From Clostridia bacterium (GTDB taxonomy: Bacteria; Bacillota; Clostridia; Christensenellales; QALW01): a DNA stretch of 64,000 bases. The position numbers and the translations under genes were made by a program. Numbering within the stretch: the stretch's first letter is position 1; each line of letters begins with the position of its first letter. This document shows, piece after piece, positions 970 through 42,830 of this stretch. Where the stretch lies: NCBI GenBank assembly GCA_045600705.1, contig JAZRYL010000042.1, positions 45,507-109,506 on the forward strand, written 5' to 3'. The notes under the pieces are model-generated. The model was not told the origin of the DNA. It saw only the letters and a program-made list of their open reading frames with translations, and did no database searches.

Positions 970-1045
970 TCTCTCTTACTTTTCTTGTAAGAAAAGTAAG
1001 CAAAATAACTTTTGTTTCGCTTTGCGGCAATAGTTCAAACTTTAT

Positions 1046-1080
1046 AAAAAACGCCTCGCTTTACACAAGCGAGGTGTTTT
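1046..1080. terminator. Bidirectional rho-independent terminator between convergent genes.
   Basis: The GC-rich inverted repeat cctcgct...agcgagg has an A-tract upstream and a T-tract downstream. Confidence 0.6.
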
Positions 1081-1082
1081 GA

Positions 1083-1751
1083 CTATTTCGTAACAGAGTC
1101 CCAAAACTTGTCCTGCAATTTTGAGAACGCGCCGATAAGCGGAGCATTGATAAATGTAACCGCTACCGTACCTATTCCGATAACATCGAAGCGGAATTTT
1201 CCGAAGAAAACGAACATTAGTATAATTCCCATACCAAGTGATGAAAAATCGTATATCCACTTGACTTTTGTAAGATTAAACTTAAAATTATCGGCAATTT
1301 CCTTTACAACGAGTTCCCAAACAACCACGGGAAGCCATGTCTTGAAGAACAGTGCAACGGCAAAAGCGATAAGAATACATCCGATTATTGCAAGAATTAT
1401 TCGCACAAGCAATGTGTCGGCGGCAATCCACGAAAAAACGATATTCCAACCGTCCAAAATCAGGCCGTCCAAAAAAGCCGCTCCAAAGGAAAGCAAATAT
1501 CTCCACTTGAATTTTCTGATTGTGATGCACATTATAAGCAAAACGACCGTTTGCAAAGTGTATTCGGCGGTACCGTAGGTGAACCAACTGAAATACTGTG
1601 AAATTTTAAGATGTAAAGCGAACACCGGCGCTTCTATCATAGACACTCCGAAACTGCTTTTTACCGCAAAGCAGACACCCAACGGGCATAACAGCATTGC
1701 AAGAATCCACGAAACGATGGGCTGAATTTTATTTCTTTTTTCTAAAGTCAT
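1083..1751 (-). CDS. YczE/DUF6198-like polytopic membrane protein.
   Basis: The 222-aa product has 6-7 hydrophobic helices. Its overall layout is similar to Bacillus YczE-family proteins. An RBS is present upstream. Confidence 0.45.
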   Translation of the reverse strand: MTLEKRNKIQPIVSWILAMLLCPLGVCFAVKSSFGVSMIEAPVFALHLKISQYFSWFTYGTAEYTLQTVVLLIMCITIRKFKWRYLLSFGAAFLDGLILDGWNIVFSWIAADTLLVRIILAIIGCILIAFAVALFFKTWLPVVVWELVVKEIADNFKFNLTKVKWIYDFSSLGMGIILMFVFFGKFRFDVIGIGTVAVTFINAPLIGAFSKLQDKFWDSVTK

Positions 1752-1857
1752 TTTATTTTTCTCCGAATTAGAATAAAAACGGGAACCGTTAATTGAACGG
1801 GTTCGAATTTGTGTTATTACGCTAAACGGCTCACAAAAATGTGAGCCGCTGAATTTA

Positions 1858-3534
1858 TCAGAACAGACCGATTATTTTGCCGTTTTCGTCCACGTCGATT
1901 TTTTCTGCGGCGGGAACTTTCGGCAGACCGGGCATAGTCATAATATCGCCGGTAAGAACAACAACGAAGCCTGCACCTGCGGACACCTTAACATTCTTGA
2001 CCGTAACGGTAAAGTCTTCGGGCGCACCTATTTTTGTTGGGTCATCGGAAAAACTGTACTGAGTTTTCGCAATGCAAACGGGGCAATTTGAGAAACCGAG
2101 TTTTTCAAGCTGTTCGATTTGCTTTTTGGCATTGGGTAAAACGTTTATACCGCTTCCGCCGTAAACTTTTTTAACAACTGCTTCGATTTTCTCGGTAATT
2201 GACATTTCGTCGGTGTAGGAGAATGTGAAATCTCCCTTTTCTTCTTCGCAAAGGCGAACGACTTCACGGGCAAGAGCCTCGCCGCCTTTTCCGCCGTCAG
2301 CCCAAACTGTCGAAAGAACGGTGTTTACACCAAGTTCACGGCACTTCTTGATAATGAAATCAATTTCGGCATCCGTATCGGTGGGGAAGCGGTTTACCGC
2401 AACTACGCAGGGAAGCTTATATACGTTTTTAATGTTCGAAACGTGGCGCAAAAGGTTGGGAATACCCTTTTCAAGGGCAGAAAGGTCTTCTGTTCCCAAC
2501 TGCTTTTTGTCAAGTCCGCCGTGCATTTTAAGCGCACGGACGGTGGCAACCATAACTACCGCATCGGGGACAAGTCCTGCCATACGGCACTTGATATCAA
2601 GGAATTTTTCGGCACCTAAATCTGCACCGAAGCCTGCTTCGGTAACGGTGTAATCGCCCATTTTAAGCGCCATCTGCGTCGCCATAACCGAGTTACAGCC
2701 GTGAGCAATGTTGGCAAAAGGTCCGCCGTGAACAAATGCAGGAGTTCCCTCTAAGGTCTGAACAAGGTTCGGCTTGAGCGCATCTTTAAGAAGTGCGGTC
2801 ATAGCACCCTGTGCGTGTAAATCGCCTGCGGTGACCGGCTTGTCGTCATAAGTGTACGCAACGATGATTCTTGCAAGGCGCTCTTTTAAGTCGGAAATCG
2901 ACGTGGCAAGGCAGAATACCGCCATTATTTCGCTTGCAACGGTAATATCGAAGCCGTCTTCACGGGGCGTTCCGTTTACTTTTCCGCCGAGACCGTCCAC
3001 AACAAAACGAAGTTGACGGTCGTTCATATCAACACAGCGCTTCCAGGTTATTTTTTTAACGTCTATTCCGAGAGCGTTGCCCTGCTGAATATGATTGTCA
3101 AGCATTGCGGCAAGCAGGTTGTTAGCGGCACCGATTGCGTGGAAATCTCCCGTGAAATGAAGATTTATGTCTTCCATGGGAACGACCTGGGCATATCCGC
3201 CACCTGCCGCACCGCCCTTTATTCCGAATACGGGACCAAGCGACGGCTCACGAAGCGCAACGGTAACATCCTTGCCGATTCTTGCAAGGCCGTCCGCAAG
3301 ACCGATGGTGGTGGTCGTTTTGCCTTCGCCTGCCGGTGTGGGCGTAATTGCGGTTACAAGAATAAGTTTGCCGTTTGCTTTATCTGTATCCGAAAGCAGA
3401 GCAGGGTCAATTTTCGCCTTGTAATTGCCATACTGCTCAAGATATTTTTCGTCAACGTGCGCTCTCTTTGCAATTTCCGTAATGTGCTTCGGTTTGCATT
3501 GCTGAGCTATTTCAATATCTGATAAATATGCCAT
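1858..3534 (-). CDS. fhs: Formate--tetrahydrofolate ligase (formyl-THF synthetase).
   Basis: The 558-aa product has the FTHFS N-terminus [11 protein letters not shown]...YGNYKAKID and the P-loop [11 protein letters not shown], and is collinear with FTHFS along its full length. Confidence 0.93.
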
Positions 3535-3773
3535 TTTGATTTCTCCTTTTAAGTGTAAAATTTGCTACACCGCTATAATTGTACCCGAAAAATTCGATTC
3601 GGTCAAGGCGCATTTTCTCAGTTGGCTACCGAATGCTTGAACTTGTTCTTTTTATATAAAAAAAGAAAACTTAAAAAAATATCACTTGTATGTTGTGTTT
3701 TGTTGATATGGGTGATATACTATAAGTGAGTGTAAGATTTTTACACAATATTTTATAATAAGGAGTCTTTATT

Positions 3774-4460
3774 ATGAACAACAATCTTTTCAAAAAGGCG
3801 CTTGCCGAATTCGTCGGCACGTTCGTACTTGTGTTCTTCGCTTGCGGAGTCGCAGCATTTACCGGCGGAAATCTTGTTCCCACCGCACTCACATTCGGAC
3901 TTGTTATCGTCGCAATGGCTTATTCTGTGGGAAAAGTTTCGGGATGCCACATTAACCCTGCGGTTTCCATTGCTTGTCTTTTTGACGGCAGAATGAATGT
4001 TACCGAATTCATTGTTTATGTAGTTTCACAAATCGTGGGCGCAGTAGTAGGCGGAATCGCTATTTTCGGAATTGCCAAAATGGGCGGTCTTACTTTGGCA
4101 GGCGACGCTTGTAACGCAGTTCTTGCACAAAATGCAGGCGGCTACGTTGGTGCAATTTTGACTGAAATCATTCTTACCTGTGTGTTCACATACGTTATTC
4201 TTAACGTTACGGATGACAGCGGAGTTGCAGGCAAAAAAGCAGGAATCATCATCGGTCTTACGCTTACGCTTGTTCACCTTTTGGGAATCAACCTTACCGG
4301 AACAAGTGTAAATCCCGCAAGAAGCATCGGAACAGCAGTTGCAGCACTTATTTTTAACGGCAACGGAACACCTCTTGGCCAGGTTTGGGTATTTATTGTT
4401 GCTCCTCTTGCAGGCGGAATTTTGTCCGTAATGCTTTATAAGGCACTTAATAAAAAGTAA
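3774..4460 (+). CDS. aqpZ: MIP-family aquaporin (aquaporin Z-like water channel).
   Basis: The 228-aa product has two NPA boxes (HINPAVS and VNPARS) in a 6-TM topology. A good RBS (aggagt) lies upstream of the ATG. Confidence 0.85.
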   Translation: MNNNLFKKALAEFVGTFVLVFFACGVAAFTGGNLVPTALTFGLVIVAMAYSVGKVSGCHINPAVSIACLFDGRMNVTEFIVYVVSQIVGAVVGGIAIFGIAKMGGLTLAGDACNAVLAQNAGGYVGAILTEIILTCVFTYVILNVTDDSGVAGKKAGIIIGLTLTLVHLLGINLTGTSVNPARSIGTAVAALIFNGNGTPLGQVWVFIVAPLAGGILSVMLYKALNKK

Positions 4461-4599
4461 TTTACGGTACTTAAAAGTCGTCATTGCAACAGAAAGCGGA
4501 ACAGATAAACGAAATAATCCAAAAATAAACAGTCCGGAAAAAATTTTTCGGACTGTTTTTATACATTTGTTTAGTGAATTTTCAGGGATAACGATTGAA

Positions 4600-4860
4600 C
4601 TGTTACCGCAAAGCGAAATAAAAGTTCTTTTGCTTACTTTTCTTACAAAATGAATTTATTGTCAAAGAGTTGTACCTGTTATTATAATCTGCCGAGGGGT
4701 TTTTGAGAAAAGATTGAACTGTTACCGCAAAGCGAGGTAAAAGTTCTTTTGCTTACTTTTCTTACAAGAAAAGTAAGGAAGCAGTTCTTTTTGTTTCCTT
4801 TTCTTTCAAGAAAAGGAAAGAAACCGTTTTCTTTCCCAAAAGAAAAGTATGGTAATCAAT
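4600..4860. repeat. Cluster of palindromic intergenic repeat units (REP/MITE-like family). Other copies lie at 970-1035, 42290-42430 and 42660-42830.
   Basis: Repeated modules of the form ccgcaaagcgRRnnaagttcttttgcttacttttcttacaagaaaagtaag, with the imperfect palindrome CTTTTCTT-N-AAGAAAAG. The copy at 970-1035 matches at more than 85% in reverse orientation. Confidence 0.7.
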
Positions 4861-6040
4861 GGTGGAACAGACGCATACCGGTAAATGCCATTGCCATACC
4901 GTACTTATCGGCACATTCGATAACAAGGTCGTCACGAATAGAGCCGCCCGGCTCGGCAATATATTTTACACCGCTTCGATTTGCACGTTCGATGTTGTCG
5001 CTGAAGGGGAAGAATGCGTCAGAACCGAGAGCAACACCGTCAAAGGAATCAAGATACAACCTTATTTCCTCACTTGTAAGCGGTTCGGGGCGACGGGTAA
5101 AGTATTTCTGCCATATTCCGTTGGCGCAAACGTCTTCCTCGTTTTTGTTAATGTAGCCGTCAATAACGTTGTCACGGTCGGGACGTCCGAGAGTAGGCAG
5201 GAAAGGAAGTTGAAGAACTTTTTCGTGCATACGCAGGAACCATGTATCAGCCTTGCTTCCCGCAAGACGGGTGCAGTGAATTCGTGACTGCTGACCTGCG
5301 CCGACGCCGATAGCCTGACCGTCGTAAGCGTAGCACACGGAATTCGACTGAGTATATTTAAGAACAATAAGCGAAATTATCAAGTCACGAACGGCACTTT
5401 CGGGCAAAGACCTGTTTTCCGTCACAATGTTGGAAAGCAGTTCACGACCGATTTTGAAATTGTTTCTGCCCTGCTCAAAGGTGATTCCGAAAACCTGCTT
5501 GCGTTCCACAGGTTCGGGAACGTAGTTTTCGTCAATTTTAACAATATTGTAGTTGCCCTTGCGCTTGGTTTTAAGAATTTCAAGTGCTTCGTCGGTGTAT
5601 CCGGGTGCAATTATTCCGTCGGAAACCTCTCGCTTGAGCATAAGCGCAGTAGTCTTGTCACAAACGTCCGAAAGTGCCACCCAGTCGCCGAACGAACACA
5701 TACGGTCGGTGCCTCTTGCACGGGCATAAGCGCAGGCAATGGGGGAGTCGTCAAGACCTTCCACATCGTCAACAAAGCACGCTTTTTTCAGTTTTTCGGG
5801 AAGTTTTATTCCCACCGCCGCAGAAGTAGGACTAACATGCTTGAATGATGCCGCCGCAGGCAAATTAAGTGCTTCTTTAAGTTCTTTTACAAGCTGCCAC
5901 GAGTTGAACGCATCTAAAAAATTGATATATCCCGGCTTTCCGCACAGAATTTCAATGGGAAGGTCACTTCCGTCCTGCATAAAGATTCTTGACGGCTTTT
6001 GATTGGGATTGCAGCCGTATTTAAGTTCAAATTCGTTCAT
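4856..6040 (-). CDS. purH: AICAR transformylase (PurH C-terminal AICARFT domain only). It lacks the MGS-like IMP cyclohydrolase domain.
   Basis: The 394-aa product has an LKYGCNPNQ motif (compare LRYGENPHQ) and a C-terminus ...AFTGMRLFHH typical of PurH (RHFRH tail). Confidence 0.8.
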   Translation of the reverse strand: MNEFELKYGCNPNQKPSRIFMQDGSDLPIEILCGKPGYINFLDAFNSWQLVKELKEALNLPAAASFKHVSPTSAAVGIKLPEKLKKACFVDDVEGLDDSPIACAYARARGTDRMCSFGDWVALSDVCDKTTALMLKREVSDGIIAPGYTDEALEILKTKRKGNYNIVKIDENYVPEPVERKQVFGITFEQGRNNFKIGRELLSNIVTENRSLPESAVRDLIISLIVLKYTQSNSVCYAYDGQAIGVGAGQQSRIHCTRLAGSKADTWFLRMHEKVLQLPFLPTLGRPDRDNVIDGYINKNEEDVCANGIWQKYFTRRPEPLTSEEIRLYLDSFDGVALGSDAFFPFSDNIERANRSGVKYIAEPGGSIRDDLVIECADKYGMAMAFTGMRLFHH

Positions 6041-6049
6041 ATTTTCACC

Positions 6050-6769
6050 TCATTTATTGGAATTTATCAGTCGGTTTTCTTCTTTTCCGCTTTCAAGGTC
6101 GGTGTAACGAACATAAAGCGAAATTCGGTTGTCGCGGTCAAGTGCATTCCATAACAAATCGGTAAAGTCGTCGATACTGTCGGGAATAGCCACACGTTCC
6201 GGCTCGCCCACAAAGGTGGGAAGGGGATTTCCGTCGCAAACGTAGGTATGAATAAAATGCCCGAGTCCGTTTATCGGCGCATAGGAAAAAGTAAATCTGT
6301 TGCACGCAGAACCGTTTTCGTCGGCACTTTTGAGAATACTCATTTCGTATGTGAAGTTATTTTCGGAAAAATCAAGTATTCCGCTTATTCTCGGAGTAAA
6401 ATTCGGGGCGTCGGGTTCAAATTCCCGTGAAACAAGTGAAGATGCAAAGGATTTTCCGCTTTTAATTCCCTCAAAAACCGTGTCGGTTTGATCACCGTTT
6501 GTCACTATCAGTTTGTTCCCGATTTTCTTTTGCGCAGGATAGATAATAAGGCTCGGATCTTCAACCTTGGATGCATCAAAAGGCTGAGTGTAAAGCACAC
6601 CGTCCTTTTCAACAAAAATGCGGTTGCGGCTGTTGGCACTTCTGCCCATAATAAAATACGCCGAAACGGCACTTTTTCCGTTCTGCGACTTGCCGATAAC
6701 GATGCCTCGCCCAACGTAACTGTTGTTGCGTATAAGTTCGCCGATGTTGTGAATTTCGTAAACGTTCAT
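6050..6769 (-). CDS. purO: PurO-type (archaeal-type) IMP cyclohydrolase.
   Basis: The listed ORF starts at 6943 but is better trimmed to the internal ATG at 6767-6769, which is preceded by aaaggaga and gives MNVYEIHNIGELI.... The start at 6943 would run through the riboswitch and its terminator. The family was assigned by recognition of PurO-like sequence. Confidence 0.6.
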   Translation of the reverse strand: MNVYEIHNIGELIRNNSYVGRGIVIGKSQNGKSAVSAYFIMGRSANSRNRIFVEKDGVLYTQPFDASKVEDPSLIIYPAQKKIGNKLIVTNGDQTDTVFEGIKSGKSFASSLVSREFEPDAPNFTPRISGILDFSENNFTYEMSILKSADENGSACNRFTFSYAPINGLGHFIHTYVCDGNPLPTFVGEPERVAIPDSIDDFTDLLWNALDRDNRISLYVRYTDLESGKEENRLINSNK

Positions 6770-6788
6770 ATTCTTTCTCCTTTTTTTT

Positions 6789-6952
6789 GAAAAATAAAAG
6801 GGCACAGATTTACATTGGCGTGACTTTAAGAATGTTACGCTAACGTAAAACTGTGCCCAGACGGTCGGCATATAAGGTTCCCGCTCCCATGCAGTTGCCT
6901 GCTTTGCGAATTTTTTTCGCATTTCCGTCAGTAACGGGGACACATAAAGAAT
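6789..6952 (-). ncRNA. ZTP (pfl-motif) riboswitch with a terminator expression platform, upstream of purO-purH.
   Basis: The minus-strand RNA reads GUCCCCGUUACUGACGGAAAU, then a P2 hairpin GCGAAaaaaaUUCGC, then CAUGGGAGCGGGAAC, a linker, and the conserved 3' pseudoknot strand CCGACCGUCUGGGCAC. The GGGCACAG...CUGUGCCC hairpin plus U-tract overlaps the pseudoknot strand. The genomic context (purH, fhs) is classic for ZTP. Confidence 0.6.
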
Positions 6953-9451: not shown

Positions 9452-9944
9452 AAATACCTCTCAATCATATACTGTTATGACAGTAAATATAATACCATAC
9501 ATTATATTATATGTAAACATCGTAGTGAAAAAAATATTTTTGTAACATTTTTTACTGCTTGGAACATATATATAGTATGGATGAACAGAAAAATGAATAT
9601 ATATTCACTATATACGCATTTTTTTGAAGACGTGCGGAACGAAAAACGAAAAAATTTTTAAAAAAAGTGTTTGACATAAAATGTACTATAGATATAATAT
9701 GTATATGTAGCTTGAATGCATCGTATTTGGTACGGAAAAGCATTTTTGTGATATAAGCGTATTCCGAAAAAAACGCTTCCACGATTTGCCAAAAACCCCG
9801 ATAAATAGGGCATTATGAACAAATTGTGAACAAAAAATATCTAAATTATTTACAAAAAAATAATTTGAATATTTTTTCAAAAAAATCGAAAAAAATGCTT
9901 GACAAGTATAAAAAACGATGATACAATTCAGGTACAAAATTTAA

Positions 9945-10072
9945 GAACATTGCCAAACCCGTGGAAACATGGGGACGGAAAGCTCAGGAGTCTAAAGCAT
10001 AATATGCAATGACAGTCCGGTTGCAAAATAAAGATTTTTTGCACGGGCTGCTTTTTTATTGCCCGTGGAGAG
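9945..10072 (+). ncRNA. Candidate c-di-GMP-I (GEMM) riboswitch in the 5' leader of the gene at 10082.
   Basis: UUGCCAAACC, then a CCCGUG-GAAA-CAUGGG GNRA hairpin, then GGGACGGAAAGCU, then a hairpin containing UCUAAAGC. This matches the GEMM-I signature (GGCAAACC...GNRA...GGGACGCAAAGCC...CCUAAA), followed by the stable hairpin cacgggc...gcccgtg just before the RBS. Confidence 0.55.
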
Positions 10073-10081
10073 GAGACCATT

Positions 10082-11275
10082 ATGAAAAAATTTGTATCTT
10101 TATTTCTTGCCTTAACGATGTTCGTAGCAGTATTCGCAACATTAGGTTTGACAGTAGGCGCTACTTCGGAAATTCAGTATTCCGATCACATGCAGGGCGC
10201 AACCCGTTATGAAATCACAGACAGCTCCATTGCTTGGGTTAAACAGGCAACCGGCGCTCTTATCTGGGTATACGGCGACGACACTCGCACAAAAGCAGAA
10301 ATCGTTGCTCAGGCTAAAAACGCAGACCCCTCACTTAAGAATGCTTGCAACGCATTTGAAGTTTTGAGAGGCGTTGGTATTAAGTACACACCCAATGCAA
10401 ACGGTTCAAAAACTAAGGTTACAGTTGCTGAAGAAGACGGAAAACTTTATATGATTCTCGGCGGAAACTACAGCCACTTCGTAAAAGGTGACGGCGGCAA
10501 AGCAGTTGCTCCCACACCTGTTCCTACAGCAGTTCCCACAGCAGCTCCTACAGCAGCTCCCACTGCTACACCTGCTCCCGGTACCACAGCAGAACCTACA
10601 GCAGTTCCCACTGCTACACCTGCTCCCACAGCAGCTCCCGTAGTTCCTGAAACTCCCGCTACCGGCGAAACAATCAACATCAGAATCGATACCGCTAAGA
10701 AAATGGCAGTTAGATTTGAAGACGGTAACGTTTATTACAACGGCGACCTTAAGGAAATCGAAATCGGTAAAGAATATCTTTTCCAGATCTGCTCAGTAAA
10801 CTGGGAAAACGGCATCTACGACGATGAAGGCAACGGCCTTTGCGGTACAGTTGTTTACAGAATGAAAGTCGTTCATGAAAAAGAATTCAAGACCATCAGA
10901 GAAATCGCTCTTCAGAACCCCGAAAGATACACCGTTAAGGGTATGGATATCATCGATAACCTTAACAAAGTAATCATCATTAACTGCGACGCTGAAAACT
11001 TCCATCTTGAAACAGACGTTAACAACTTCTTCATGGCTTATCGCTTCCACTTTGAAAAGGGCGACTACAACAAGCAGACCGGTATCAAGAACGTTGTTAA
11101 TCCTACCGAAAGCCTTTCGGTAAACCTTCCTCTTGGAACAACAGTTACTGCTGATGCTTATGCAAAGTTCTCAAAGATTGCTTCTGCTGCTATCCTTGTT
11201 GAAAACAACAACGGCACAGGCGTTTATGAAAACGTATATCTTACAAGCGTAAACGATTATACTTGGAACTACTAA
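10082..11275 (+). CDS. Secreted protein with a Pro/Thr/Ala-rich linker. Function unknown; possibly surface-associated or an adhesin.
   Basis: Signal peptide MKKFVSLFLALTMFVAVFATLG; a PT-rich low-complexity linker (APTPVPTAVPTAAPTAAPTATPAP...); RBS ggagag upstream. Confidence 0.6.
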   Translation: MKKFVSLFLALTMFVAVFATLGLTVGATSEIQYSDHMQGATRYEITDSSIAWVKQATGALIWVYGDDTRTKAEIVAQAKNADPSLKNACNAFEVLRGVGIKYTPNANGSKTKVTVAEEDGKLYMILGGNYSHFVKGDGGKAVAPTPVPTAVPTAAPTAAPTATPAPGTTAEPTAVPTATPAPTAAPVVPETPATGETINIRIDTAKKMAVRFEDGNVYYNGDLKEIEIGKEYLFQICSVNWENGIYDDEGNGLCGTVVYRMKVVHEKEFKTIREIALQNPERYTVKGMDIIDNLNKVIIINCDAENFHLETDVNNFFMAYRFHFEKGDYNKQTGIKNVVNPTESLSVNLPLGTTVTADAYAKFSKIASAAILVENNNGTGVYENVYLTSVNDYTWNY

Positions 11276-13024: not shown

Positions 13025-13047
13025 TAAAAAAGCCGTTTTTCAAAAAA

Positions 13048-29600: not shown

Positions 29601-32600
29601 TTGCGGTGCCGTGCAGGTTGCGTTAGCTCCGCCTTGATGCGGAAGCAGGGGTGAAGCGGTAAGTGAACCGGATATTATACTGTTGCAGTCCGCACAGTAG
29701 GTGTATGCGCCGTGACCGCGACGTGCGCAGGTGGAATTCATTGAACCAAATATAACGGTATTTGAATGTGCGCAGGAAGCATTGGCACGACAAACGTAAA
29801 GCGCCATATCGCAGGTTTCTTTTTCAGTAACATTCCACGTTCCGGAGGACGAGGCGGTGAAACTGCCGGCCGAATCAATTTGACCTGTAACGGGATTAAA
29901 CCATATATAATTATATGAAGCATTAGCTGTTAAGTGACCTAAAACACCGGTTTTTACAGCATTTTCGGGTGTTGCGTTAGGTGTTCTTGCAATAGTAGTA
30001 TCACTGAAATTGTAGAAGTAAACTACTGCCTTGCTTGAGTCATTCGCAGAAGCGCAAATGGGGAATACTCCGTTGTTTTCGGGCGTAAAGTATTCCGTAT
30101 AGTCAAAGCGAGGAACAAGGTCGTACCAATTTCCAACCAAGTTGGACATAAATTCGTGCAGATAGCCTAACTGATAAGTGCTTGGATATTCAAGTGAACT
30201 TTCCCACGTTGCGGCAACTTTATCTGCGGCGGTAATAATATCTACACCGTCGGTACTGTCTTCGTCTTCACCGTAGGAACTTAAATAGCACCATGTGTCC
30301 TGACCGCCCCATGCGGCACCGTACATTCCGCTGAGGTATGCCATCCAGCCCTGAACTCTTGCACCGAAATTTTTTGTCCAAAGGTAACAGTATTTTCCCT
30401 CGTAAAGAACTACCGGTTTACCTTGACCGTTCTGCCAATAATCCATAGGTGCAGTTTGATTTATTTTTACATTGTAACTTTGTGACCACTGTGAAGCATA
30501 CCAAGTATGCGCTGAACAGTCACGGAAAGCAGAATCTGAAGCGGCGGTACTGCCGGAATATTCCTGATGAGCGGTCAACGGATGCGAGTAGGCATCGTGA
30601 TGAGCGATACGTTCAGCAACATAAACGTAGGGGTTGTTTACGTATGACCATTCCATGTGACTGTTATATTCACTTCTATCCCAATAGAAGTCGTTGTCAA
30701 CCTCTTGACCGAGAGTCCAGAAAACGGGATAAGCACCGTAACGGGCAACCCAGTATCTTGAAATAAGGTCAAGTGCTTCTTTTGCCGAATCGGATAAATC
30801 GTACACGGTAACGTTTGAATGATTTTCGTTTGCTGTGCCTACGGGGGTATTTGACCATCCGCCGTTATTATTGATAAATGATTTCATATCCGACGGGAAG
30901 AAGAATTCCGCATTTGAATGGCACAATCCGTAGGAGGCGATTATGTCGAATTTTTCGTCATTAACGTGGAAACCGTCAATATCTTCTTGGGTGATGCCGT
31001 TTTTTGCATTGAAGCCTGCACCAATCGGTTCGGACTGAATAACGGTGAAGTTCTGCTGAACACGTTTTTTTACTACTGTTTTAATGTTTGAAACGGGTTC
31101 GGAGCCCATTCCCCAATGGGTATCGCCGAGATAGAAGAACGGTGTTCCGTCTGCATAGGTGAAATATTTTGTTGATCCGGTTTTTACGAATCCGTGACGG
31201 TAAATATCAAGAGTTCCTGCGTAAGGTGTGCAGATAACTGTTCCGGTCTGATTGTGAAGCCCCCCATCAAGGGTGTTTGAACAATCGGTGTAATAAGTCC
31301 ATGTTCCGGGTTCGGTGCAAACAAAACGGGCACGCCAAATATTGCTTCCGTCCCAGAATGCGGGAACGGTGTAGGTGACTGTTCCGTTTGTAAGGACAAG
31401 GTCGAGAGTTACGTCCTTATAGGGGTTCGAGTAAGTGTTTTTTGCAACAAAGACTGCCTCGTTGAGTGTCCATGTGGAAGCACGGCCTACTTCGTGAGCA
31501 TAGTCGCTGCCGTCGTCAATAAGAATAATGCGGAAATTGTCTATTTTTATATTTGTTACGTCGGCAGCAATCATGTGAAAACCGAATTTCCACCAACCCG
31601 AAGCGTTAACGTCGGCATCGGAAACGGTAAAAGTGTCTTCGTAAGAATACCACTGATTACCTGCCTTTGTGCCTGCACCCTTTAAGCCTCTGTAGTTTGT
31701 AAAATTACAGAAAGAATACTGTTTATCAGTACGGATAACGCAGGAGAAAGGCTGTTCGGCGGTAGTATTGTTCGCTTTGTAGTCAAATGAAATCTTATAT
31801 GTACCTGCACGGTCAATTCTTGTTTTAATATTTATTGCAGCGGTGTGGAATGAATAACTGCTTCCTGAATTTTTTGTAAATTTAAAACAGTTGCCGTCCT
31901 TGCCGTCAGCAGAAATGGCCGTTGTGACTGAACCGAATGATTCCGTCCACATAGTGTCGTTTACGTTTGAAACATTATCAAAGGAAGAAGAACTTTCGGG
32001 AATTATATTTGCCGATTCGGAAGCGATAACCTTTACATTGTCAATGTAAATTTCCGAAACGGAGTTGTGAATTTGATGTAAGCAAAGATCCCACTTATTT
32101 TTGGATGCAAAATCTGCTTCGGTGAAAGTGAGAGTAGCGGTGTATGTGTACCATACGCCCGATGAACCGAATTTTGCCTGAGACAGTTCACCGTAATAAT
32201 TATCACCGTAAAGTCTTGCAAATGAATACTGCTTGTCGGTACGAATAAGTACTGTGAACGGCTGACATTCGGATGAAGAGGTTACCGAGTAGTCGAACAG
32301 AAGTGTGTATGTACCGGGGTGATCTATATAAGGAGCAAGATTTAATGCGGCTGAAGCATACGATCCGCCGGAAGCGGGTTTTACCACTTTGAGGCATTTT
32401 CCGGGGTTGCCTAAATCAACTACCGACATGTTAGGCGAACCGTAGTGGTTACCCCAACCTGCATCGATAGGAGAAACTGCACTGTCAAAATTACTTGCTT
32501 TGTCCGGAATAATATTTCCGGCACGGCAGATAAGGCTGTTTTCTGTTGCCGATACATTAAGCGCAAGCATTGGAAATACAGACAGAATCATTGTAAGGCT

Positions 32601-32639
32601 AATCAGAATACTCAAAAATTTAGTATGTGTTTTTTTCAT
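26649..32639 (-). CDS. Giant secreted multidomain carbohydrate-active protein (1996 aa): two N-terminal CBM-like domains, a DUF4038/GH140-like TIM-barrel domain, Cys-rich modules, and four tandem C-terminal domains of about 170 aa.
   Basis: Signal peptide MKKTHTKFLSILISLTMILSVFPMLALNVSA. Central domain with FFYLGDTHW, WTLGQEVDN (clan-A acid/base-like) and VLYEGKY motifs. Repeated Cys modules (ALGHDF..PATC..G.....CTRC). Four repeats of the ...NYNWG(F/Y)(L/Y)AYP...TRIPNT... domain. Confidence 0.6.
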   Translation of the reverse strand: MKKTHTKFLSILISLTMILSVFPMLALNVSATENSLICRAGNIIPDKASNFDSAVSPIDAGWGNHYGSPNMSVVDLGNPGKCLKVVKPASGGSYASAALNLAPYIDHPGTYTLLFDYSVTSSSECQPFTVLIRTDKQYSFARLYGDNYYGELSQAKFGSSGVWYTYTATLTFTEADFASKNKWDLCLHQIHNSVSEIYIDNVKVIASESANIIPESSSSFDNVSNVNDTMWTESFGSVTTAISADGKDGNCFKFTKNSGSSYSFHTAAINIKTRIDRAGTYKISFDYKANNTTAEQPFSCVIRTDKQYSFCNFTNYRGLKGAGTKAGNQWYSYEDTFTVSDADVNASGWWKFGFHMIAADVTNIKIDNFRIILIDDGSDYAHEVGRASTWTLNEAVFVAKNTYSNPYKDVTLDLVLTNGTVTYTVPAFWDGSNIWRARFVCTEPGTWTYYTDCSNTLDGGLHNQTGTVICTPYAGTLDIYRHGFVKTGSTKYFTYADGTPFFYLGDTHWGMGSEPVSNIKTVVKKRVQQNFTVIQSEPIGAGFNAKNGITQEDIDGFHVNDEKFDIIASYGLCHSNAEFFFPSDMKSFINNNGGWSNTPVGTANENHSNVTVYDLSDSAKEALDLISRYWVARYGAYPVFWTLGQEVDNDFYWDRSEYNSHMEWSYVNNPYVYVAERIAHHDAYSHPLTAHQEYSGSTAASDSAFRDCSAHTWYASQWSQSYNVKINQTAPMDYWQNGQGKPVVLYEGKYCYLWTKNFGARVQGWMAYLSGMYGAAWGGQDTWCYLSSYGEDEDSTDGVDIITAADKVAATWESSLEYPSTYQLGYLHEFMSNLVGNWYDLVPRFDYTEYFTPENNGVFPICASANDSSKAVVYFYNFSDTTIARTPNATPENAVKTGVLGHLTANASYNYIWFNPVTGQIDSAGSFTASSSGTWNVTEKETCDMALYVCRANASCAHSNTVIFGSMNSTCARRGHGAYTYCADCNSIISGSLTASPLLPHQGGANATCTAPQVCRNCHAIINDALGHDFENSSVPATCTEAGKVDHICTRCRIVETDNISALNHAETETVRISVNGAYYYVVTNAGADKLTPFKTMSMSGDSKQVSFYLFNDTDKTITTFSLGYRWGYYAYPANGTLTRIPNTCWNGSLAPHNGIQVTLTVPKNCIMSNKSGYLTDGSTDSNGEIVSYEDLGLRIMFGGGNATGNVYITCINSDGVEAGNINACLSKTACFNDEPVALLQNTAVPNYVNDGLTACGFSKIGLFEHDCMHKGHSSNLCVHCSAEMTQTALEDYGAHTPGAEATCLTAQVCEICGQTMHSALGHDFVLTSTAPATCEAEGTKYFACTRCNATKTERIASLGHNDKVTSYIAPTCDADGFEISACTRCGRITSDTIVPALSHKSFETVGFNDINGSYLVTRPGVEYSPFKFVDMGDENEKEIHLYLYNGTNKKLTSVTLNYNWGFYAYPDADNLTRIPNTAKSLELMPGQGIEITLTLPRQAIYSNLRNNATDGSSDSLGQLIDYHSVGLRFMFDGAVNDGTLYVSGLNEATLNYALSQAGANGGRHVNASLISNKLSVPEDLVQELERIGYIGTRSIADCIDGFRYGDKCVHCEGVTENIVSLPATGHHNVDVAKITLAGTRNYVVSKSGSSRVTPFKFSDMGNEDSKLYRFLVYNDTNATLTGATLCYNWGYLAYPSADQLVRISGTYSSERILPGEYAVIELTVPKMCYFSNQPGQLTQGAYDSLGEQISYKDFGIKFGFSNTADGSLYVTCLNDPAVTVGLSATGSMSAQDTFENVTRATLLPENLQSIIDYNDAQCLFCENTACARYTLAGQNLYIVSTSGANASSLPFSDLVFEDGETEKEVQLLIKNNTTATVTWVSLNYNWGHVAYADENLTPITSARCNVNLAPGEETVITLTVPRECYFSNLVGSLTAGAYDSLGEKVSYDTMGIRYMFAGTTFSGTMSVSCLNDETVTANLAGCAYKTASTVEYTAD

Positions 32640-35789: not shown

Positions 35790-35824
35790 AAAGTATAATC
35801 CTTTTATTGATTTGTTTTTTTCGA

Positions 35825-38486: not shown

Positions 38487-38638
38487 ATCCTACGGACTTT
38501 AATATATTGTTACGTTAGAATAAGTTTCATTTATTGTATTATAAGTTATTGTATATGTTACGTCAATATGATATTATAAGCTTGTGAAAATTTGTAATTC
38601 ATAAATTGATGCAAAAGCAATAAAAAAGGAGAAGAGAT

Positions 38639-41600
38639 ATGAAAAAAACACGTTTTTTAATTGCATTGATGCTGATTTTAGCATTAGTCGTATCATGCTT
38701 GCAGGTCGTTTCGGTGCCTGCCCTTGCAAAGAGCGATTACGTTGCATTTTCAATTACAAACGGAAATCAGTATTATCATCTAATAAAGAATATTTTTTCG
38801 TTTGAAAATCGAAAAAGCGAAACGTTTGAAAGAAAATATAATGTTTATAATCCCACCGACCACGATGTTTGGGTACAGTTTGAGGTAATAGACCTCGCAA
38901 CGTGGGGACCCACCGCAAAAAGCGGTGAAATACTTGTTGCGGCAGGAGGATCAACAGAAATTTCCACCGGCAACATTACGGTTGACGGAAGCGGAAAAAT
39001 CACCTGCTCAACACAAGCGGGCAACGTAACACAAATAGCCGTTACTGCGGCAACGCTTCGTGTTAACATTCTCGGCAGTGCCGGACCTACAAAGTTCGAC
39101 AATCAGTTAGCTGAGGGCGAAAAAATATATTTTGAACCCTTGGACCAGGCAGAGCTTTCGTGGTACAACAACGGCACAACGACGGATGCCACCTTGTATT
39201 CAAGCTCGTCTAATGCGGCTTTTGAAACACGTCTTCCCGAAGTTGGAAAATACATCGGTTGGAAAATTTCCGGCGCTACTAAGTGCTATCACATAATGAA
39301 CGAAACGTTCTCATTTGAAACGGACAGAGCAGGCACAACCTTTGTACGTTCGTACGACATATATAACTTATCCGACAGCGAAATTCACGTTATGGTTGAA
39401 TTGGACGGCAGTTGGAAAGAATATGCAATGGGTACTCAAGTAACTATTCCTGCCGGCGGTCACGAAGAGGTTTCCACAAAGAATATTGTTGTTGATGCAG
39501 ACGGAAAAATTCTTGATTATAACGGAGCAAACCCCATTCCGCTGACAAATGCAAGAATAAGATTTAATATAGGACACACAAGTGCGTACGACGGTTATGA
39601 AAATACCGACTGCTATATTGTTGCCAAAGATGAAAGAGAAATCGCATGGCTGCAGGATAACGAACCTTCGGGCAGTCTTATGGGTGCAACCATAGAAAGG
39701 GTTAAAAAGGCAGATTTGGAAAATGATTTCCCCGAACTTGCAGAGTTTATCGGTTGGAAGCTTTCCGGCGCTACTCAGTATTATCACATGATAAACGGAA
39801 CGTTCTCCTTTGAAACGGACAGAGCCGATTCAACCTTTGTACGTACTTACGATGTGTACAATTTGTCAGACAGAGAAATCTATGTTCAAGCCGAATTGGA
39901 CGGCAGTTGGAAAGAGTATGCAATAGGAACTCGAGTAACTATTCCTGCCGGCGGTCACGACGCAGTTTCCACAAAGAATATTGTTGTTGACGCAGACGGA
40001 AAAATTCTTGATAATAACGGAGCAAATCCCATTCCGCTGACAAGTGCAAGAATAAGATTTAATATAGGACACACAAGTTCGTTCGGCGATTTTGCCGATG
40101 CTGACTGCTATATTCTTCCGAGAGATGAAGAAGAACTTGCATGGCTGCAGGATAACGAACCTGCGGGCAACCTCGGCGCAACCGTAAAGAAAATAAAGAT
40201 GTCAGATATCGGCGGAAACGGCGGACTTCTTATGAAGCAAACGATTGATTTTTCCGACCCCAACCTTATGATATCGGGACGTTACACGGAAAATGCAGAC
40301 GGTTCAAGAACAATTGGCTTTGAGCCGTACACGGAATTGAACTTTACGGGAACTTCCGTTTCGGTAAACGGTTCGGGAAGCTGCTATCTTGAAATAGACG
40401 GCGTTCCCTATAAGGTAAACGGACAGTACAAATGTATTGCACTTTCTTCCAATAAAGGCCTTGCGGAAAATCTTCCCGAGGGCAACCACTGTGTAAGACT
40501 TTACGCATTCTCACAGCGCTGCAACTATACGATAAAAGAATTCTATATTGACCTTAATGCACAGACTCTGCCCCCGGAATACAATAAGACTATCGAATTT
40601 ATCGGTTCGTCCTCGCTTGTTGCGTACACCGATGCACGTGATCCTCACGAAGAATACGATACAAACACAAGTTATATGATTTCTTTTGCATACCAGACGG
40701 GCAAGATGCTTCAGAATGACGGTTTCCGCTTTAATACCGTCGCATACGGCGGAAGCGGTGTTGTATATCATTCATCTGCAAACGGCGCTTCAGCAGACGG
40801 AGATAAGGACTATCTCACCATGCAGGACCGTTACAAATTAGTGCATGAATATTTGGGCGGAAAGGGCAATCCCGAACCGACACCTGTAGCCGCTTGGGAT
40901 CACTCAAAATACGTTCCCGATTATATTGCTCTCTATCTTGGCGCAAATGATTTGGGACAGGGCTTGGACGTATTCAAAACAAATTACAAGGGCTTTATTG
41001 ATCAGCTTTTGGGATATTATCCCGATGCGGTTATAATTGCAATGGCTCCGTATAATTCCAACGAAAGCTATGCAAAGGCATTGGAAAGCGTTGTAAATGA
41101 ATATCACAGTATGCAGGTAAGATATGTAAATACCTTGAATTGGGGCGTAAGTGCAAGTCCCACCGACGGCATGCATGCCGTTGCGGCAGACCATGTAGTG
41201 CTTGCACAAAAGCTTTACCCCGAATTGCAGAAAATATGCCTCACGGATACTTTTGAATTTGATTCCAAAAATCTTGCTCTTGAAAATAGTCTTACGTTCC
41301 GTTTCAAAGGATTCCTGCACGATAAAACTCCGGCAGATGATGCTTATATGGAATTCAAAATCGGCGATGTTCGCACGGAAAACATTCCTCTTTCAAAGGC
41401 AACTACCGATGAAAAGGGCAGATACGTATTTAATTGTCACGTAAACGTTCTTGAGCTTGACGAAAAGATAGAACCGATCTTCCACGACGGCGAAAAGACC
41501 GTTGAAAGACAAAATCCGGTTTCGGTAACAGATTATCTTGAGCAGGTTCTTGCAAACCATAAAGGCGGAACGGCAGAAGATATAAAGAACGTCAACATTG

Positions 41601-42148
41601 TCAATGCAATATCAAACTACGCACACTATGCGCAGATAGCACTTGACGAAACCCATGAGGCGTACACCGTCGGCGCTGACGGAAAATATCACGGCACAGC
41701 GGCAAGAACTGCAATTACTCAGAAAACTGTTGACCAACTTTTGGACTATAAGGCAGTAAAGAATGTTGCAGGCGAATTTACCGATGTAACGGCTACTTCA
41801 CGAAGCCTTGCACTTTATGACAAAACGGCAATAATCGTTTACATTACACCTGCAAACAGCAGTTATATTCCTGATGTTAAGGTAACCGACAAGTTCGGCG
41901 AAAATGCAGATTTCACCTGCGAAAAGCAAGCAGACGGCAGATATATGGTTGTTATCTCCGGCATTGCGGCGCACATGCTGGGCAGCGGATATACAGTAGA
42001 CATTGACAACGGCAAACTGACTTACACTAACCTTTCTGCACTTTCGTATGCTTATTCAATTCTTTTAAGCAGCAACAGTGAAGCATCTAAAAATGCAGTG
42101 TCTGCATTATATGACTATTTTGTAGCCGCAGATAATTTTAAGAAGTGA
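38639..42148 (+). CDS. Large secreted protein (1169 aa) with three copies of an uncharacterised domain of about 160 aa and a C-terminal SGNH/GDSL hydrolase (carbohydrate esterase-like) domain.
   Basis: Signal peptide MKKTRFLIALMLILALVVSCLQVVSVPALA. Repeated domains contain YHxxNxTFSFETDRA...IPAGGHExVSTKNIVVDADGKILD. SGNH blocks: FIGSSSL, LGANDLG, DGMHAV. Confidence 0.6.
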   Translation: MKKTRFLIALMLILALVVSCLQVVSVPALAKSDYVAFSITNGNQYYHLIKNIFSFENRKSETFERKYNVYNPTDHDVWVQFEVIDLATWGPTAKSGEILVAAGGSTEISTGNITVDGSGKITCSTQAGNVTQIAVTAATLRVNILGSAGPTKFDNQLAEGEKIYFEPLDQAELSWYNNGTTTDATLYSSSSNAAFETRLPEVGKYIGWKISGATKCYHIMNETFSFETDRAGTTFVRSYDIYNLSDSEIHVMVELDGSWKEYAMGTQVTIPAGGHEEVSTKNIVVDADGKILDYNGANPIPLTNARIRFNIGHTSAYDGYENTDCYIVAKDEREIAWLQDNEPSGSLMGATIERVKKADLENDFPELAEFIGWKLSGATQYYHMINGTFSFETDRADSTFVRTYDVYNLSDREIYVQAELDGSWKEYAIGTRVTIPAGGHDAVSTKNIVVDADGKILDNNGANPIPLTSARIRFNIGHTSSFGDFADADCYILPRDEEELAWLQDNEPAGNLGATVKKIKMSDIGGNGGLLMKQTIDFSDPNLMISGRYTENADGSRTIGFEPYTELNFTGTSVSVNGSGSCYLEIDGVPYKVNGQYKCIALSSNKGLAENLPEGNHCVRLYAFSQRCNYTIKEFYIDLNAQTLPPEYNKTIEFIGSSSLVAYTDARDPHEEYDTNTSYMISFAYQTGKMLQNDGFRFNTVAYGGSGVVYHSSANGASADGDKDYLTMQDRYKLVHEYLGGKGNPEPTPVAAWDHSKYVPDYIALYLGANDLGQGLDVFKTNYKGFIDQLLGYYPDAVIIAMAPYNSNESYAKALESVVNEYHSMQVRYVNTLNWGVSASPTDGMHAVAADHVVLAQKLYPELQKICLTDTFEFDSKNLALENSLTFRFKGFLHDKTPADDAYMEFKIGDVRTENIPLSKATTDEKGRYVFNCHVNVLELDEKIEPIFHDGEKTVERQNPVSVTDYLEQVLANHKGGTAEDIKNVNIVNAISNYAHYAQIALDETHEAYTVGADGKYHGTAARTAITQKTVDQLLDYKAVKNVAGEFTDVTATSRSLALYDKTAIIVYITPANSSYIPDVKVTDKFGENADFTCEKQADGRYMVVISGIAAHMLGSGYTVDIDNGKLTYTNLSALSYAYSILLSSNSEASKNAVSALYDYFVAADNFKK
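39240..40180 (+). repeat. Intragenic tandem DNA repeat: two units of about 440 bp at roughly 85-90% identity inside the 1169-aa gene.
   Basis: 39240-39700 and 39730-40180 are nearly collinear (e.g. ggcagttggaaagaatatgcaatgggtactcaagtaactattcctgccggcggtcacga in both). A third, more diverged copy lies at 38750-39230. Confidence 0.7.
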
Positions 42149-42158
42149 GGGTAATAAT

Positions 42159-42290
42159 ATGAAAGCCGAAAAGAAAATGTATGAAAACCCCGAATTAGAG
42201 ATTATCGGCCTTACAAAAGAAGACGTTTTCACCAACGACAGCAGCACGAGTTGGAAAGACCCTGCAGAGCTTGAGGAAATTCCCGACTAA
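42159..42290 (+). CDS. Small ORF (43 aa) missed by the ORF track, giving an acidic peptide: MKAEKKMYENPELEIIGLTKEDVFTNDSSTSWKDPAELEEIPD.
   Basis: ATG 10 nt after the stop of the 1169-aa gene, with the RBS-like gagggtaataat upstream. It is followed by repeat elements and terminators. No Cys residues; coding status uncertain. Confidence 0.3.
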   Translation: MKAEKKMYENPELEIIGLTKEDVFTNDSSTSWKDPAELEEIPD

Positions 42291-42430
42291 ACTTACTTTT
42301 TTCTGCTTACTTTTTCTTGAAAGAAAAGGAAGCGAAAAGAACTTTTATCTCACTTCGTGACAACTTACTTTTCTTATAAGAAAAGTAAGCAAAAGAATTT
42401 TTATCTCACTTCGTGGCAATAGAATAAATT
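42290..42430. repeat. Two tandem copies of the palindromic intergenic repeat family (variant with a ...tctcacttcgtgRcaa tail).
   Basis: cttactttttcttgaaagaaaaggaagcgaaaagaacttttatctcacttcgtgacaac, then cttacttttcttataagaaaagtaagcaaaagaatttttatctcacttcgtggcaatag, which is about 80% identical to the 970-1035 copy. Confidence 0.65.
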
Positions 42431-42435
42431 TTATA

Positions 42436-42467
42436 CAAAAAGGACGGTATTAAACCGTCCTTTTTCG
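42436..42467 (+). terminator. Rho-independent terminator.
   Basis: aaaaaggacggtattaaaccgtcctttttcg. Confidence 0.65.
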
Positions 42468-42659
42468 TTGCTTTTATTTATGCCAATAGCTCATTTAACC
42501 AAAAAAAGCCTCCCTTGTGCAAAGGGAGGTGTTGAGCGTAGCGAAACGGAGGGATTGTATATAAAGTATAAACAAAAGACGGTTGTTTTCATATTACCCT
42601 CAACACAATCCCTCAGTCACTTCGTGCCAGCTCCCTTTACACAAGGGAGCCTTATTATA

Positions 42660-42830
42660 TACAAAAGATTATTGTATTGCCGCAAAGCGAAATCAGCTTT
42701 CTTTTGCCTACTTTTCTTTCCCGAAAGAAAAGTACGGTGCCGCAAAGCGGAAGCAGCTTTCTTTTGCCTACTTTCCTTTCCCGAAAGAAAAGTACGGTAC
42801 CGCAAAGCGAGGCAATAAAATCTGTGATTT
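42660..42830. repeat. About 2.5 direct tandem copies (around 67 bp each) of the palindromic intergenic repeat, in inverted orientation.
   Basis: ccgcaaagcgaaatcagctttcttttgcctacttttctttcccgaaagaaaagtacggtg is repeated, with variants ccgcaaagcggaagc and ccgcaaagcgaggc. Each unit contains the palindrome cttttctttcccgaaagaaaag. Confidence 0.7.

Follow-up and report, generated by a model that had tools for sequence, protein, structure and literature searches.

Palindromic intergenic repeats with a potential triplex hairpin in a Clostridia contig, and their relatives in distant bacteria and phages

Which kind of element lies behind the short palindromic sequences that recur between the genes of a 64,000-nt stretch of Clostridia bacterium DNA (contig JAZRYL010000042.1, positions 45,507 to 109,506; this whole stretch is called the window below, and positions are those of the window)? 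A first-pass annotation had recorded these sequences at four sites and had offered three options: a miniature mobile element, a transcript-stability element of the repetitive extragenic palindrome (REP) type, or a binding site for a nucleoid or regulatory protein. We found that the four sites are true copies of one non-coding intergenic repeat family. [quoted passage not shown] The palindrome is one part of a three-segment motif, made up of a mirror tract and a hairpin, and this motif is the core of a family that extends across phyla; both had been missed before.

Repeat units and a composite element in the window

Seven full or near-full units of 56-60 nt and three partial ones were found, exclusively at the four sites, and every significant match of an nhmmer profile built from six units fell within these sites (0 elsewhere in the 64 kb). 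Compared to shuffled sequence of the window, the head sequence CCGCAAAGCG was present in six exact copies (0.25 expected), the pattern CTTTTCTT-N6-AAGAAAAG with at most two mismatches in three (0.09 expected) and the core TTMTTTTSSYTNCYTTYCYTT with at most one mismatch in seven (0.00 expected). TRF recovered three arrays: 60 nt x 2.2 at 42678-42810, 56 nt x 2.0 at 42306-42419 and 42 nt x 2.0 at 4742-4822. By counts, TRF and nhmmer alike, the repeats reported at the four sites are real and far above chance. The array region 42660-42830 is open in all three forward and in two reverse frames, which explains the spurious open reading frames (ORFs) that the first-pass annotation had attributed to the copies.

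From 5' to 3' a unit consists of a mini-hairpin head, a T-rich tract (S1), the linker GCYTAC and a hairpin with the arms S2 and S3 (ACTTTTCTT..AAGAAAAGT). The stem of the head reads CGC-AAA-GCG in its common form, CAC-GAA-GTG in the units U7 and U8 and CGC-GAA-GCG in the relative at locus L005, so that the changes in this stem are compensatory; the tail variant that had been noted earlier (...TCACTTCGTGRCAA) is real and represents the compensatory form in which CGC/GCG has become CAC/GTG. In the aligned unit the head is followed by a spacer of ~9 nt, by S1 as TTCTTTT or TTTCTTTT, the linker, S2 as ACTTTTCTT(T), a loop of 2-4 nt, S3 as (A)AAGAAAAGT, and finally AAG or ACGG. S2 and S3 form a hairpin of 11-12 bp in every fold, as RNA or as DNA (for the window sites, z = -2.6 to -6.5). 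S1 mirrors S2 and is not its complement, in five of the seven window cores and in most relatives: the single C is equidistant from the linker in S1 and S2, and the outer T runs of the two segments count 2 and 2 in U3, U7 and U8, and 3 and 3 in U4. The S2/S3 hairpin was also considered as a terminator and rejected, since no U tract follows it on either strand.

The region 42285-42835 folds, as a single strand, into one long imperfect palindrome (-104.9 kcal/mol, z = -9.7). Given this fold and the outward orientation of the units of the third and fourth sites around a central palindrome, these sites are best read as the two arms of one element of ~540 bp (42291-42830), not as independent sites. 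The arms form terminal inverted repeats (42363-42432 versus 42664-42733, 73% complementary over 70 nt) and the 540 bp contain spurious ORFs only, which makes the element small (<~600 bp) and non-coding. The first and second sites are inverted half-elements (972-1085 and 4588-4855), oriented head-to-head in the same way as the arms of the complete element and 90% complementary over 69 nt (975-1043 in U1 versus 4709-4777 in U3). They are separated by a 3.6-kb block with the DUF6198, fhs and aquaporin genes, which they flank as had been described.

At the first site, U1 (972-1045, minus strand; nhmmer E 1.3e-19) has its head CCGCAAAGCG at 1018-1027 and its core at 978-1008, carries the degenerate S1 TTATTTT, and its hairpin begins 5 nt past the TAA stop of ORF 34-969. 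Just 5' of U1 and on the same strand lies a terminator-like hairpin, CCTCGCTT-GTGTA-AAGCGAGG with a T run (1054-1074), similar to the hairpins 42509-42529 and 42630-42650. The second site is read on the plus strand. It contains U2 (4588-4650; E 3.7e-15), which has a head and S1-linker-S2 and ends where the 3' arm of the hairpin would start, U3 (4707-4777; E 1.8e-20), with the head hairpin TTACC-GCAAAGCGA-GGTAA and a core at 4744-4774, a headless unit of an S1-like tract and a hairpin (4783-4821), and a hairpin-only unit (4826-4855) that adjoins the stop of ORF 4856-6040 (minus strand). A promoter-like TTGTCA-18-TATAAT (4659-4688, plus strand; 11/12) reads into U3, a lead given by a consensus match only.

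In the composite element the left arm, on the minus strand, is made up of U7 (42306-42363; head variant TCACGAAGTGA, core 42309-42341 with 1-nt insertions; E 9.6e-16) and U8 (42364-42434; head variant CCACGAAGTGA, core 42367-42397; E 1.3e-17). Between this arm and the centre stands an intrinsic-terminator-like hairpin of 12 bp, flanked by an A run and a T run (42437-42465, plus strand). The central palindrome (42503-42656) contains the hairpins CCTCCCTT..AAGGGAGG (42509-42529) and GCTCCCTT..AAGGGAGC (42630-42650), and its inner motifs GAGCGTAGCGAAAC and CAGTCACTTCGTGCC resemble the unit heads; CACTTCGTGCC is likewise an inner motif. The right arm, on the plus strand, consists of U4 (42664-42737; head 42680-42689, core 42699-42733, S1 TTTCTTTT, S2 ACTTTTCTTT, S3 AAAGAAAAGT; E 1.3e-20), U5 (42738-42797; S2 altered by a single T>C) and, as a remnant with a head only, U6 (42798-42815).

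All copies had been placed after convergent gene ends, next to terminators. The intergenic position beside terminators stood: upstream of every site, in the sense from S1 to S3, there is a terminator-like hairpin followed by an AT-rich spacer (hairpins at 1074-1054 on the minus strand, 4527-4560, 42465-42437 and 42630-42650). Convergent ends did not stand for the third and fourth sites, because these share one spacer between two genes of the same strand, a 43-aa ORF (42159-42290, plus) and a DUF6935 gene (43012-43644, plus). The first site lies between ORF 34-969 (plus) and the DUF6198 gene (minus), the second between the aquaporin gene (plus) and a gene of the AICARFT/IMPCHase type (minus).

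Intergenic and palindromic copies, in mixed orientations and beside terminators, are what one would expect of REP/BIME-type sequences, imperfect extragenic palindromes of 20-40 nt that are recognised and spread as single-stranded hairpins by the transposase RAYT (TnpA-REP), whose gene REPs typically flank. The inverted pairs are reminiscent of REPINs, and the GAA/AAA triloop head resembles stable DNA mini-hairpins. However, the units start with TTGCCGCAAAGCG or TTGYCACGAAGTG and have no conserved GTAG-type tetranucleotide 5' of the palindrome (the GTAAG they contain is the 3' end of the stem), they combine head, mirror tract and hairpin over 56-60 nt, and complete elements measure ~0.5 kb with a structured centre. 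A comparison with Pfam revealed no transposase and no Y1/RAYT gene among 39 principal ORFs of the window (a set to which 26649-32639 and 51704-57958 do not belong). With such a different anatomy, the REP/RAYT option appears highly improbable.

Covariation of the mirror tract and the hairpin

The register of the segments and the pseudoknot potential were analyzed for 42 distinct parsed instances (loci outside the window are designated by L numbers). The inner T runs of S1 and S2 counted (4,4) in 31 instances, (3,3) in six, (3,4) in two and (4,3) in none (Fisher p = 8.6e-6), and the outer run of S1 equalled that of the paired stem in 33 of 39 (Spearman 0.74), both statistics being calculated as if the copies shared no ancestry. 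Two coordinated changes affect the three strands at once. The right arm of Ralstonia wenshanensis reads TTTCTTTT/ACTTTTCTTT/AAAGAAAAGT and that of R. solanacearum has one base fewer in each segment; in the paralogues of L135 (3772 and 5774) the C of S1, the C of S2 and the G of S3 are all shifted by one position. These are clearly separate events. In a triple helix of the pyrimidine motif the third, pyrimidine strand runs parallel to the purine strand, forming T.A-T and C+.G-C triples. As S1 is antiparallel to the pyrimidine arm S2, it is parallel to the purine arm S3, which is the geometry of such a triplex.

A further complementarity was found in the copies with loops of at least 6 nt, where 4-8 nt just 5' of S1 (A) are complementary to the start of the loop (A'). 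The sequences involved are many and different: GTGGCG/CGCCAC, CCTGC/GCAGG, GTCGGC/GCCGAC, CGTCC/GGACG, CTTGAA/TTCAAG, TGCCC/GGGCA and GCTGC/GCAGC. A MAFFT alignment brought the long-loop copies out of register and a permutation test was used instead: the mean best helix was 4.54, versus 3.07 ± 0.17 for the permuted set (maximum 3.67, 5000 permutations), and an A:A' helix of at least 5 bp was present in 13 of 24 instances (1.6 expected). Segments in the order A-S1-S2-A'-S3 correspond to an H-type pseudoknot whose loop 1 (S1) follows the major groove of stem 2 and is parallel to S3. As far as sequence comparison can tell, the covariation fits a triplex combined with a pseudoknot. On the complementary strand the pseudoknot is also sterically normal, with a short loop 1 and a long, A-rich loop 3, so far as the choice of a functional strand may be concerned.

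The same data bear on the option of a duplex-DNA binding site, i.e. an operator array or nucleoid-protein sites on the palindrome TTTTCTT..AAGAAAA. The half-sites are perfectly palindromic and stand in tandem upstream of the gene at 43012-43644, which would suit such a role. Against it, compensatory changes keep the arms complementary while loop lengths range over 2-13 nt, which points to pairing and not to a fixed spacing of half-sites; the interleaved A:A' complementarity and the covariation of the mirror tract are unexpected for a duplex operator; and the copies are mostly found at the 3' ends of genes. We therefore consider binding sites of this type very unlikely. A CodY-like operator, or another one of fixed spacing, was discarded on account of the variable loops and the compensatory changes.

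Relatives in Oscillospiraceae, distant bacteria and phages

A strict pattern of the window type, made up of head, N9, S1 and linker (CCRCRAAGYG-N9-TTNTTTTGCYTAC), had no true match in 185,579 species-representative genomes (three chance matches, in Proteobacteria), and a longer pattern of the strict type had a single true match in the JGI metagenomes, L005. This near-absence would be expected if the repeats were purely local duplications of terminator regions, with no family outside the window, and the peptides of the repeat-derived spurious ORFs, concatenated into one query of possibly poor design, likewise had no relatives in a protein search. Yet the sites lie 3.6 kb and 37 kb apart in unrelated gene contexts, L005 (identical to L009) has a full unit between the rpsP stop and the khpA start of another member of the Oscillospiraceae, and the core recurs in many other genomes. 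Local duplication consequently receives very little credence from us.

The position between rpsP and khpA was informative. In L011 and L012, whose S16 is 92% identical, it is occupied by a diverged copy, the hairpin of which is preserved via a compensatory double change from A-T to G-C. The rpsP-khpA spacer measures ~97 nt with the element (L009-L012) and 16-20 nt without it (L013-L018, relatives at 87%), which is a filled versus empty contrast at an orthologous site in related Oscillospiraceae. The ffh-rpsP spacer of L005 (480-560) carries a different, GC-rich long hairpin (GTAGGGGCGGCC...GGCCGCCCCTAC) that looks like another repeat type common in Clostridia.

The core was recovered from far more distant sources. 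The S1-linker-S2 pattern alone identified 27 loci in viral contigs, at least eight of which run on into a matching S3 arm. A pattern of the hairpin arms only identified 113 loci, and among the 230 strand-wise flanks (~115 hairpin matches, both strands) 33 had S1, as TTCTTTTG, 2-4 nt upstream, on contigs with a G+C content of 0.29 to 0.68. In each of these scans the extra segment lay outside the search pattern and thus provides independent evidence of relationship. With a 98-nt copy from a contig of 68% G+C as the query, matches were obtained in 43 plasmid and chromid records at a minimum of 422 places, with at least 40 places in each of seven Paraburkholderia replicons. The genera include Burkholderia, Paraburkholderia, Caballeronia, Ralstonia, Variovorax, Pseudoalteromonas, Aeromonas, Pasteurella, Haliovirga and Ilyobacter, so that replicons of Fusobacteria are within the range of the core. 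Genomes of E. coli had no match to the element, and a blastn search of one window unit against plasmids and phages gave nothing at E 0.01.

Many copies in the relatives occur as head-to-head pairs of 0.45-0.55 kb (L131, L154, L155 and L162 among them). In Ralstonia 133 megaplasmid records carry the pair unit of ~540 bp (77-81% identity), each in 1-11 places and with differing flanks. In the phage L131 (an IMG/VR contig) two pair elements (6332-6845 and 10444-10897, 90-95% identical) flank the terminase-portal genes. The motif AAACTG(C/A)AATTT occurs in all four of their flanks, 25-35 nt outside the hairpins, as a direct repeat around one element and inverted around the other; the flanking 'AAACTGCAATTT' motifs were rejected as a target-site duplication because they are not consistently direct repeats. 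In Pasteurella (L162) one pair is located inside the dapF-yigA-xerC operon. Loops such as GAGCGAAGCGAG and CAGCGAAGC ('AGCGAAGC'-like) are found in the inner hairpins of the pair elements from Ralstonia and Pasteurella (L155, L162) and tentatively resemble the head and the central GAGCGTAGCGAAAC of the window.

Two loci associate the motif with the TwoAYGGAY RNA. In Pseudoalteromonas piscicida (L156, NZ_CP074588.1) the region 2077-4220 consists of three to four tandem non-coding units of ~748 bp, each with a TwoAYGGAY match and, 24 nt on and on the same strand, the S1-S2-S3 motif; the repeat element may thus contain TwoAYGGAY as one of its internal parts. In the viral contig L045 the RNA likewise adjoins the motif, and two type II hammerhead ribozymes lie elsewhere on the contig. 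In the window itself, Rfam 15 at the gathering threshold recognised only two c-di-GMP-I aptamers and one ZTP riboswitch, with no match at the repeat sites and no TwoAYGGAY. Rfam scans by E-value of both repeat regions and of L029 gave sub-threshold noise only; the best match on a relative was to 6A, with 18 bits (cut-off 41). A published description of the element was found neither by topic nor by literal sequence in a search that covered few of the subscription journals, and an earlier description is possible; a candidate would be the MITE reported in avrA of Ralstonia and cited in PMC10969869.

A functional RNA module in place of selfish DNA, such as a triple helix in the 3' untranslated region (UTR) that blocks exonucleases (ENE/MALAT1-like) or a source of outward small RNAs, would account for several of these results. 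The covariation agrees with an H-type pseudoknot of RNA-like form containing U.A-U triples, the motif of L028 is oriented in the sense direction, behind a stop codon and ahead of a terminator, and U3 has its promoter-like site. The motif follows TwoAYGGAY at ~24-70 nt on the same strand in L156 and L045, and the rpsP-khpA element persists across species with a compensatory change. The window units, on the other hand, lie downstream (in the direction from S1 to S3) of terminator-like hairpins and so would be transcribed by read-through only. In six of the eight copies that stand alone, the motif is present in the sense transcript as its complement, a ratio that is not significant either way (an orientation rule relative to the upstream genes, 6 versus 2, was dropped for that reason). 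The many copies per genome, the inverted pairs and the presence in phages fit selfish spread. A role as RNA module is, in our opinion, unlikely.

Possible mode of spread, gene context and known systems

According to the MITE-like reading that we favour, a complete element would measure ~0.5 kb and have two inverted arms around a palindromic centre. Going outward, an arm would comprise a terminator-like hairpin, an AT-rich spacer, a GNA/AAA head, S1 (T2-3 C T4), GCYTAC and the hairpin of S2 (AC T4 C T2-3) and the purine-rich S3. In single-stranded DNA or in a transcript, S1 would occupy the major groove of the S2:S3 helix, parallel to S3; the predicted triples are T(U).A-T(U) plus one C+.G-C. 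In the relatives with longer loops, the bases 5' of S1 would pair with the loop and close an H-type pseudoknot. The window would then hold one complete element (42291-42830) and two inverted half-elements, with units that are locally amplified in tandem as in BOX-like modular repeats. Most likely the element spread as non-autonomous mobile DNA; it would be tolerated in 3' intergenic spaces and would add structured RNA to 3' UTRs beside terminators. The inverted arms, the non-coding length of ~0.5 kb, the multiple copies and the presence or absence at rpsP-khpA make the miniature mobile element the best supported of the options initially put forward.

Several points, beside the rarity of the strict pattern and the disregard of shared ancestry in the register and covariation statistics, weigh against this reading. 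The copy count in the home organism comes from the 64-kb window with its three intergenic regions. The window units have loops of 2-4 nt and no A:A' pairing, and with such loops the pseudoknot stem cannot form; the loops of L019, L028, L047, L102 and L117 are also short and lack the extra stem, S1 and the hairpin being retained. U1 (C>A) and L011/L012 carry a degenerate S1. A triplex would need a protonated C. Changes compatible with G.U pairing favour the S1-S3 strand in L070, L135 and L138, and its complement in L101, L046- and U5. The shared core is only ~35 nt long and of low complexity, so that part of the resemblance could be convergence, and the cross-phylum set was gathered with patterns derived from the window, which is why the matches of its profile to the window (E down to 1.4e-7) arise partly by construction. 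Neither the window ends nor rpsP-khpA nor the L131 pairs showed direct repeats recognisable as a target-site duplication, the exact limits of the elements being uncertain, and an autonomous partner with matching ends was not seen in the loci analyzed.

A bolder reading, which we regard as possible though doubtful, is that S1-linker-S2-loop-S3, with its optional stem between 5' flank and loop, is a triple-helix hairpin or pseudoknot of a kind not described before and is carried at either end of a mobile non-coding element that has spread over Firmicutes, Proteobacteria, Fusobacteria and their phages, that the triplex is its selected function and that TwoAYGGAY is an internal part of one branch. 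The triplex would be, for example, a single-stranded end resistant to nucleases or polymerases and needed for propagation, or a protector of RNA 3' ends. If the triplex reading holds, an ordinary-looking REP/MITE repeat would carry a conserved three-stranded motif common to distant bacteria and phages, offering a concrete structure for the recognition, movement or tolerance of such elements. It could also be a bacterial case of multi-copy natural triplex-forming sequences, a context for the orphan TwoAYGGAY RNA and, as a 3'-end protector, a bacterial equivalent of the elements that stabilise transcripts of eukaryotic transposons and long non-coding RNAs by a triple helix. If the triplex is irrelevant, what remains is a further family of intergenic repeats specific to a lineage, and of limited interest. 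For annotation the units matter because, being open in five of six frames, they will be miscalled as genes, and because they mark 3' UTRs and terminator regions.

The units also flank a possibly rearranged fhs block. The home organism is a relative of the Oscillospiraceae/Ruminococcaceae: the Fhs protein of the window is 99% identical to that of one short ENA contig and 92-94% identical to that of abundant gut species. Exact matching of two window proteins against a protein index gave no hits. The neighbours of fhs differ among the close relatives, being an ABC transporter and a NUDIX gene in L007 and purD-purL in L008; L006, the one contig of the same species and too short for comparing the intergenic regions, keeps the aquaporin-fhs arrangement. 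The block between the inverted half-elements (1083-4460) may thus have moved or been rearranged. Beyond the second site, a ZMP/ZTP riboswitch (6848-6945, minus strand; 47 bits) marks the 5' end of a gene pair of the IMP-cyclohydrolase-like and AICARFT types (6050-6943 and 4856-6040). The repeat site is at the 3' end of this ZTP-led pair, and fhs, a usual gene of the ZTP regulon, is just beyond.

The composite element is preceded by an ORF of 1169 aa (38639-42148, plus strand) that looks secreted, has a weak GDSL-lipase match and contains an internal coding duplication of 495 nt (39212-39511 versus 39707-40006, 82% identity); after it comes the 43-aa ORF 42159-42290, whose stop adjoins the element. 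Directly after the tandem units follows a co-directional run (43012-47406, plus strand) encoding DUF6935, SPFH/Band-7, zinc-ribbon and TPM-domain proteins. Since ToxI-type RNAs form triplex-containing pseudoknots, the 2.2 tandem repeats of 60 nt upstream of ORF 43012-43644 bring to mind the antitoxin RNA array of a type III toxin-antitoxin system. The downstream protein, however, is a DUF6935 protein, with no match to ToxN, AbiQ, CptN or TenpN nor in PADLOC, a promoter-like site and not a terminator stands between array and gene, and units are present at three other sites and at rpsP-khpA with no toxin gene nearby. An array of this sort at the fourth site is thus extremely improbable. Compared to PADLOC, the neighbours of this site gave no convincing defence match; the zinc-ribbon ORF 45159-46259 had weak matches only (PDC-S64, E 9e-4; DruE, E 4e-3).

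Elsewhere in the window, the two c-di-GMP-I riboswitch aptamers (9942-10028 and 13046-13130, both on the plus strand; 73 and 70 bits) are followed by ORFs without Pfam domains (10082-11275 and 13203-13874), the former of which has a 12/24-nt coding tandem repeat at 10500-10650. Near them are genes for an HD-domain protein, a response regulator with EAL and GGDEF domains and polysaccharide functions. Two ORFs are very large: 26649-32639 (minus strand, 1996 aa) and 51704-57958 (plus strand, 2084 aa), the latter with many short coding repeats and a Cys/His-rich periodicity (53630-54880).

Among the known systems, type III toxin-antitoxin arrays differ in that the present tandem units precede a DUF6935 gene and no ToxN-type toxin, and the other copies are not beside such genes either. 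With REP/BIME and REPIN-RAYT systems the present family shares short extragenic palindromes, inverted doublets and a 3' intergenic location, but its unit is longer and different and lacks the GTAG-type head and, in the window ORFs scanned, a RAYT. The Correia/NEMIS, ERIC/IRU and RPE elements are similar in being non-coding, 0.1-0.6 kb long and intergenic, in having inverted arms that together give one long hairpin, and in being often co-transcribed with their neighbours, present in many copies and variably present between relatives. Unlike for these, no target-site duplication or parent insertion sequence was identified here, and the present core spans phyla and phages. We know of no mirror-tract and hairpin (triplex/pseudoknot) module at the arm ends of those elements.

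The TwoAYGGAY RNA (RF01731) is reported from gamma-Proteobacteria, Clostridiales and the human gut (PMC2864571), a range that overlaps with that of the motif; the two adjoin (~24-70 nt, same strand) in L156 and L045 only. The triplex motif is not part of the Rfam model, AYGGAY hairpins are lacking beside most motif copies and the window has no match. In Firmicutes, the BOX/SPRITE sequences of Streptococcus pneumoniae are modular intergenic repeats that are linked to terminator-like hairpins (PMC10969869). As in BOX, a single module has multiplied in tandem to varying copy numbers, and boxB corresponds to the present unit of S1 and hairpin, a comparison made by description only. We know of no sequence relationship between the two, and no mirror repeat or triplex potential has been reported for BOX.

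The closest structural parallels are H-type pseudoknots with major-groove triplexes and 3'-end triple helices (general architecture in PMC6061858, for SAM-V, and PMC10159000). These RNAs (SAM-II/SAM-V, telomerase RNA, MALAT1 and the PAN ENE class) are single-copy and have a known ligand or role, whereas the present motif is a multi-copy repeat on both strands of palindromic elements; the window copies moreover do without the pseudoknot stem, the triplex being deduced from sequence. The order A-L1(U-rich)-S2-A'-L3-S3, in which a U-rich loop parallels the purine strand of stem 2, is nevertheless that of the SAM-II and SAM-V riboswitches and of telomerase RNA, and the predicted runs of U.A-U triples, interrupted by one C+.G-C, would be like those of MALAT1.

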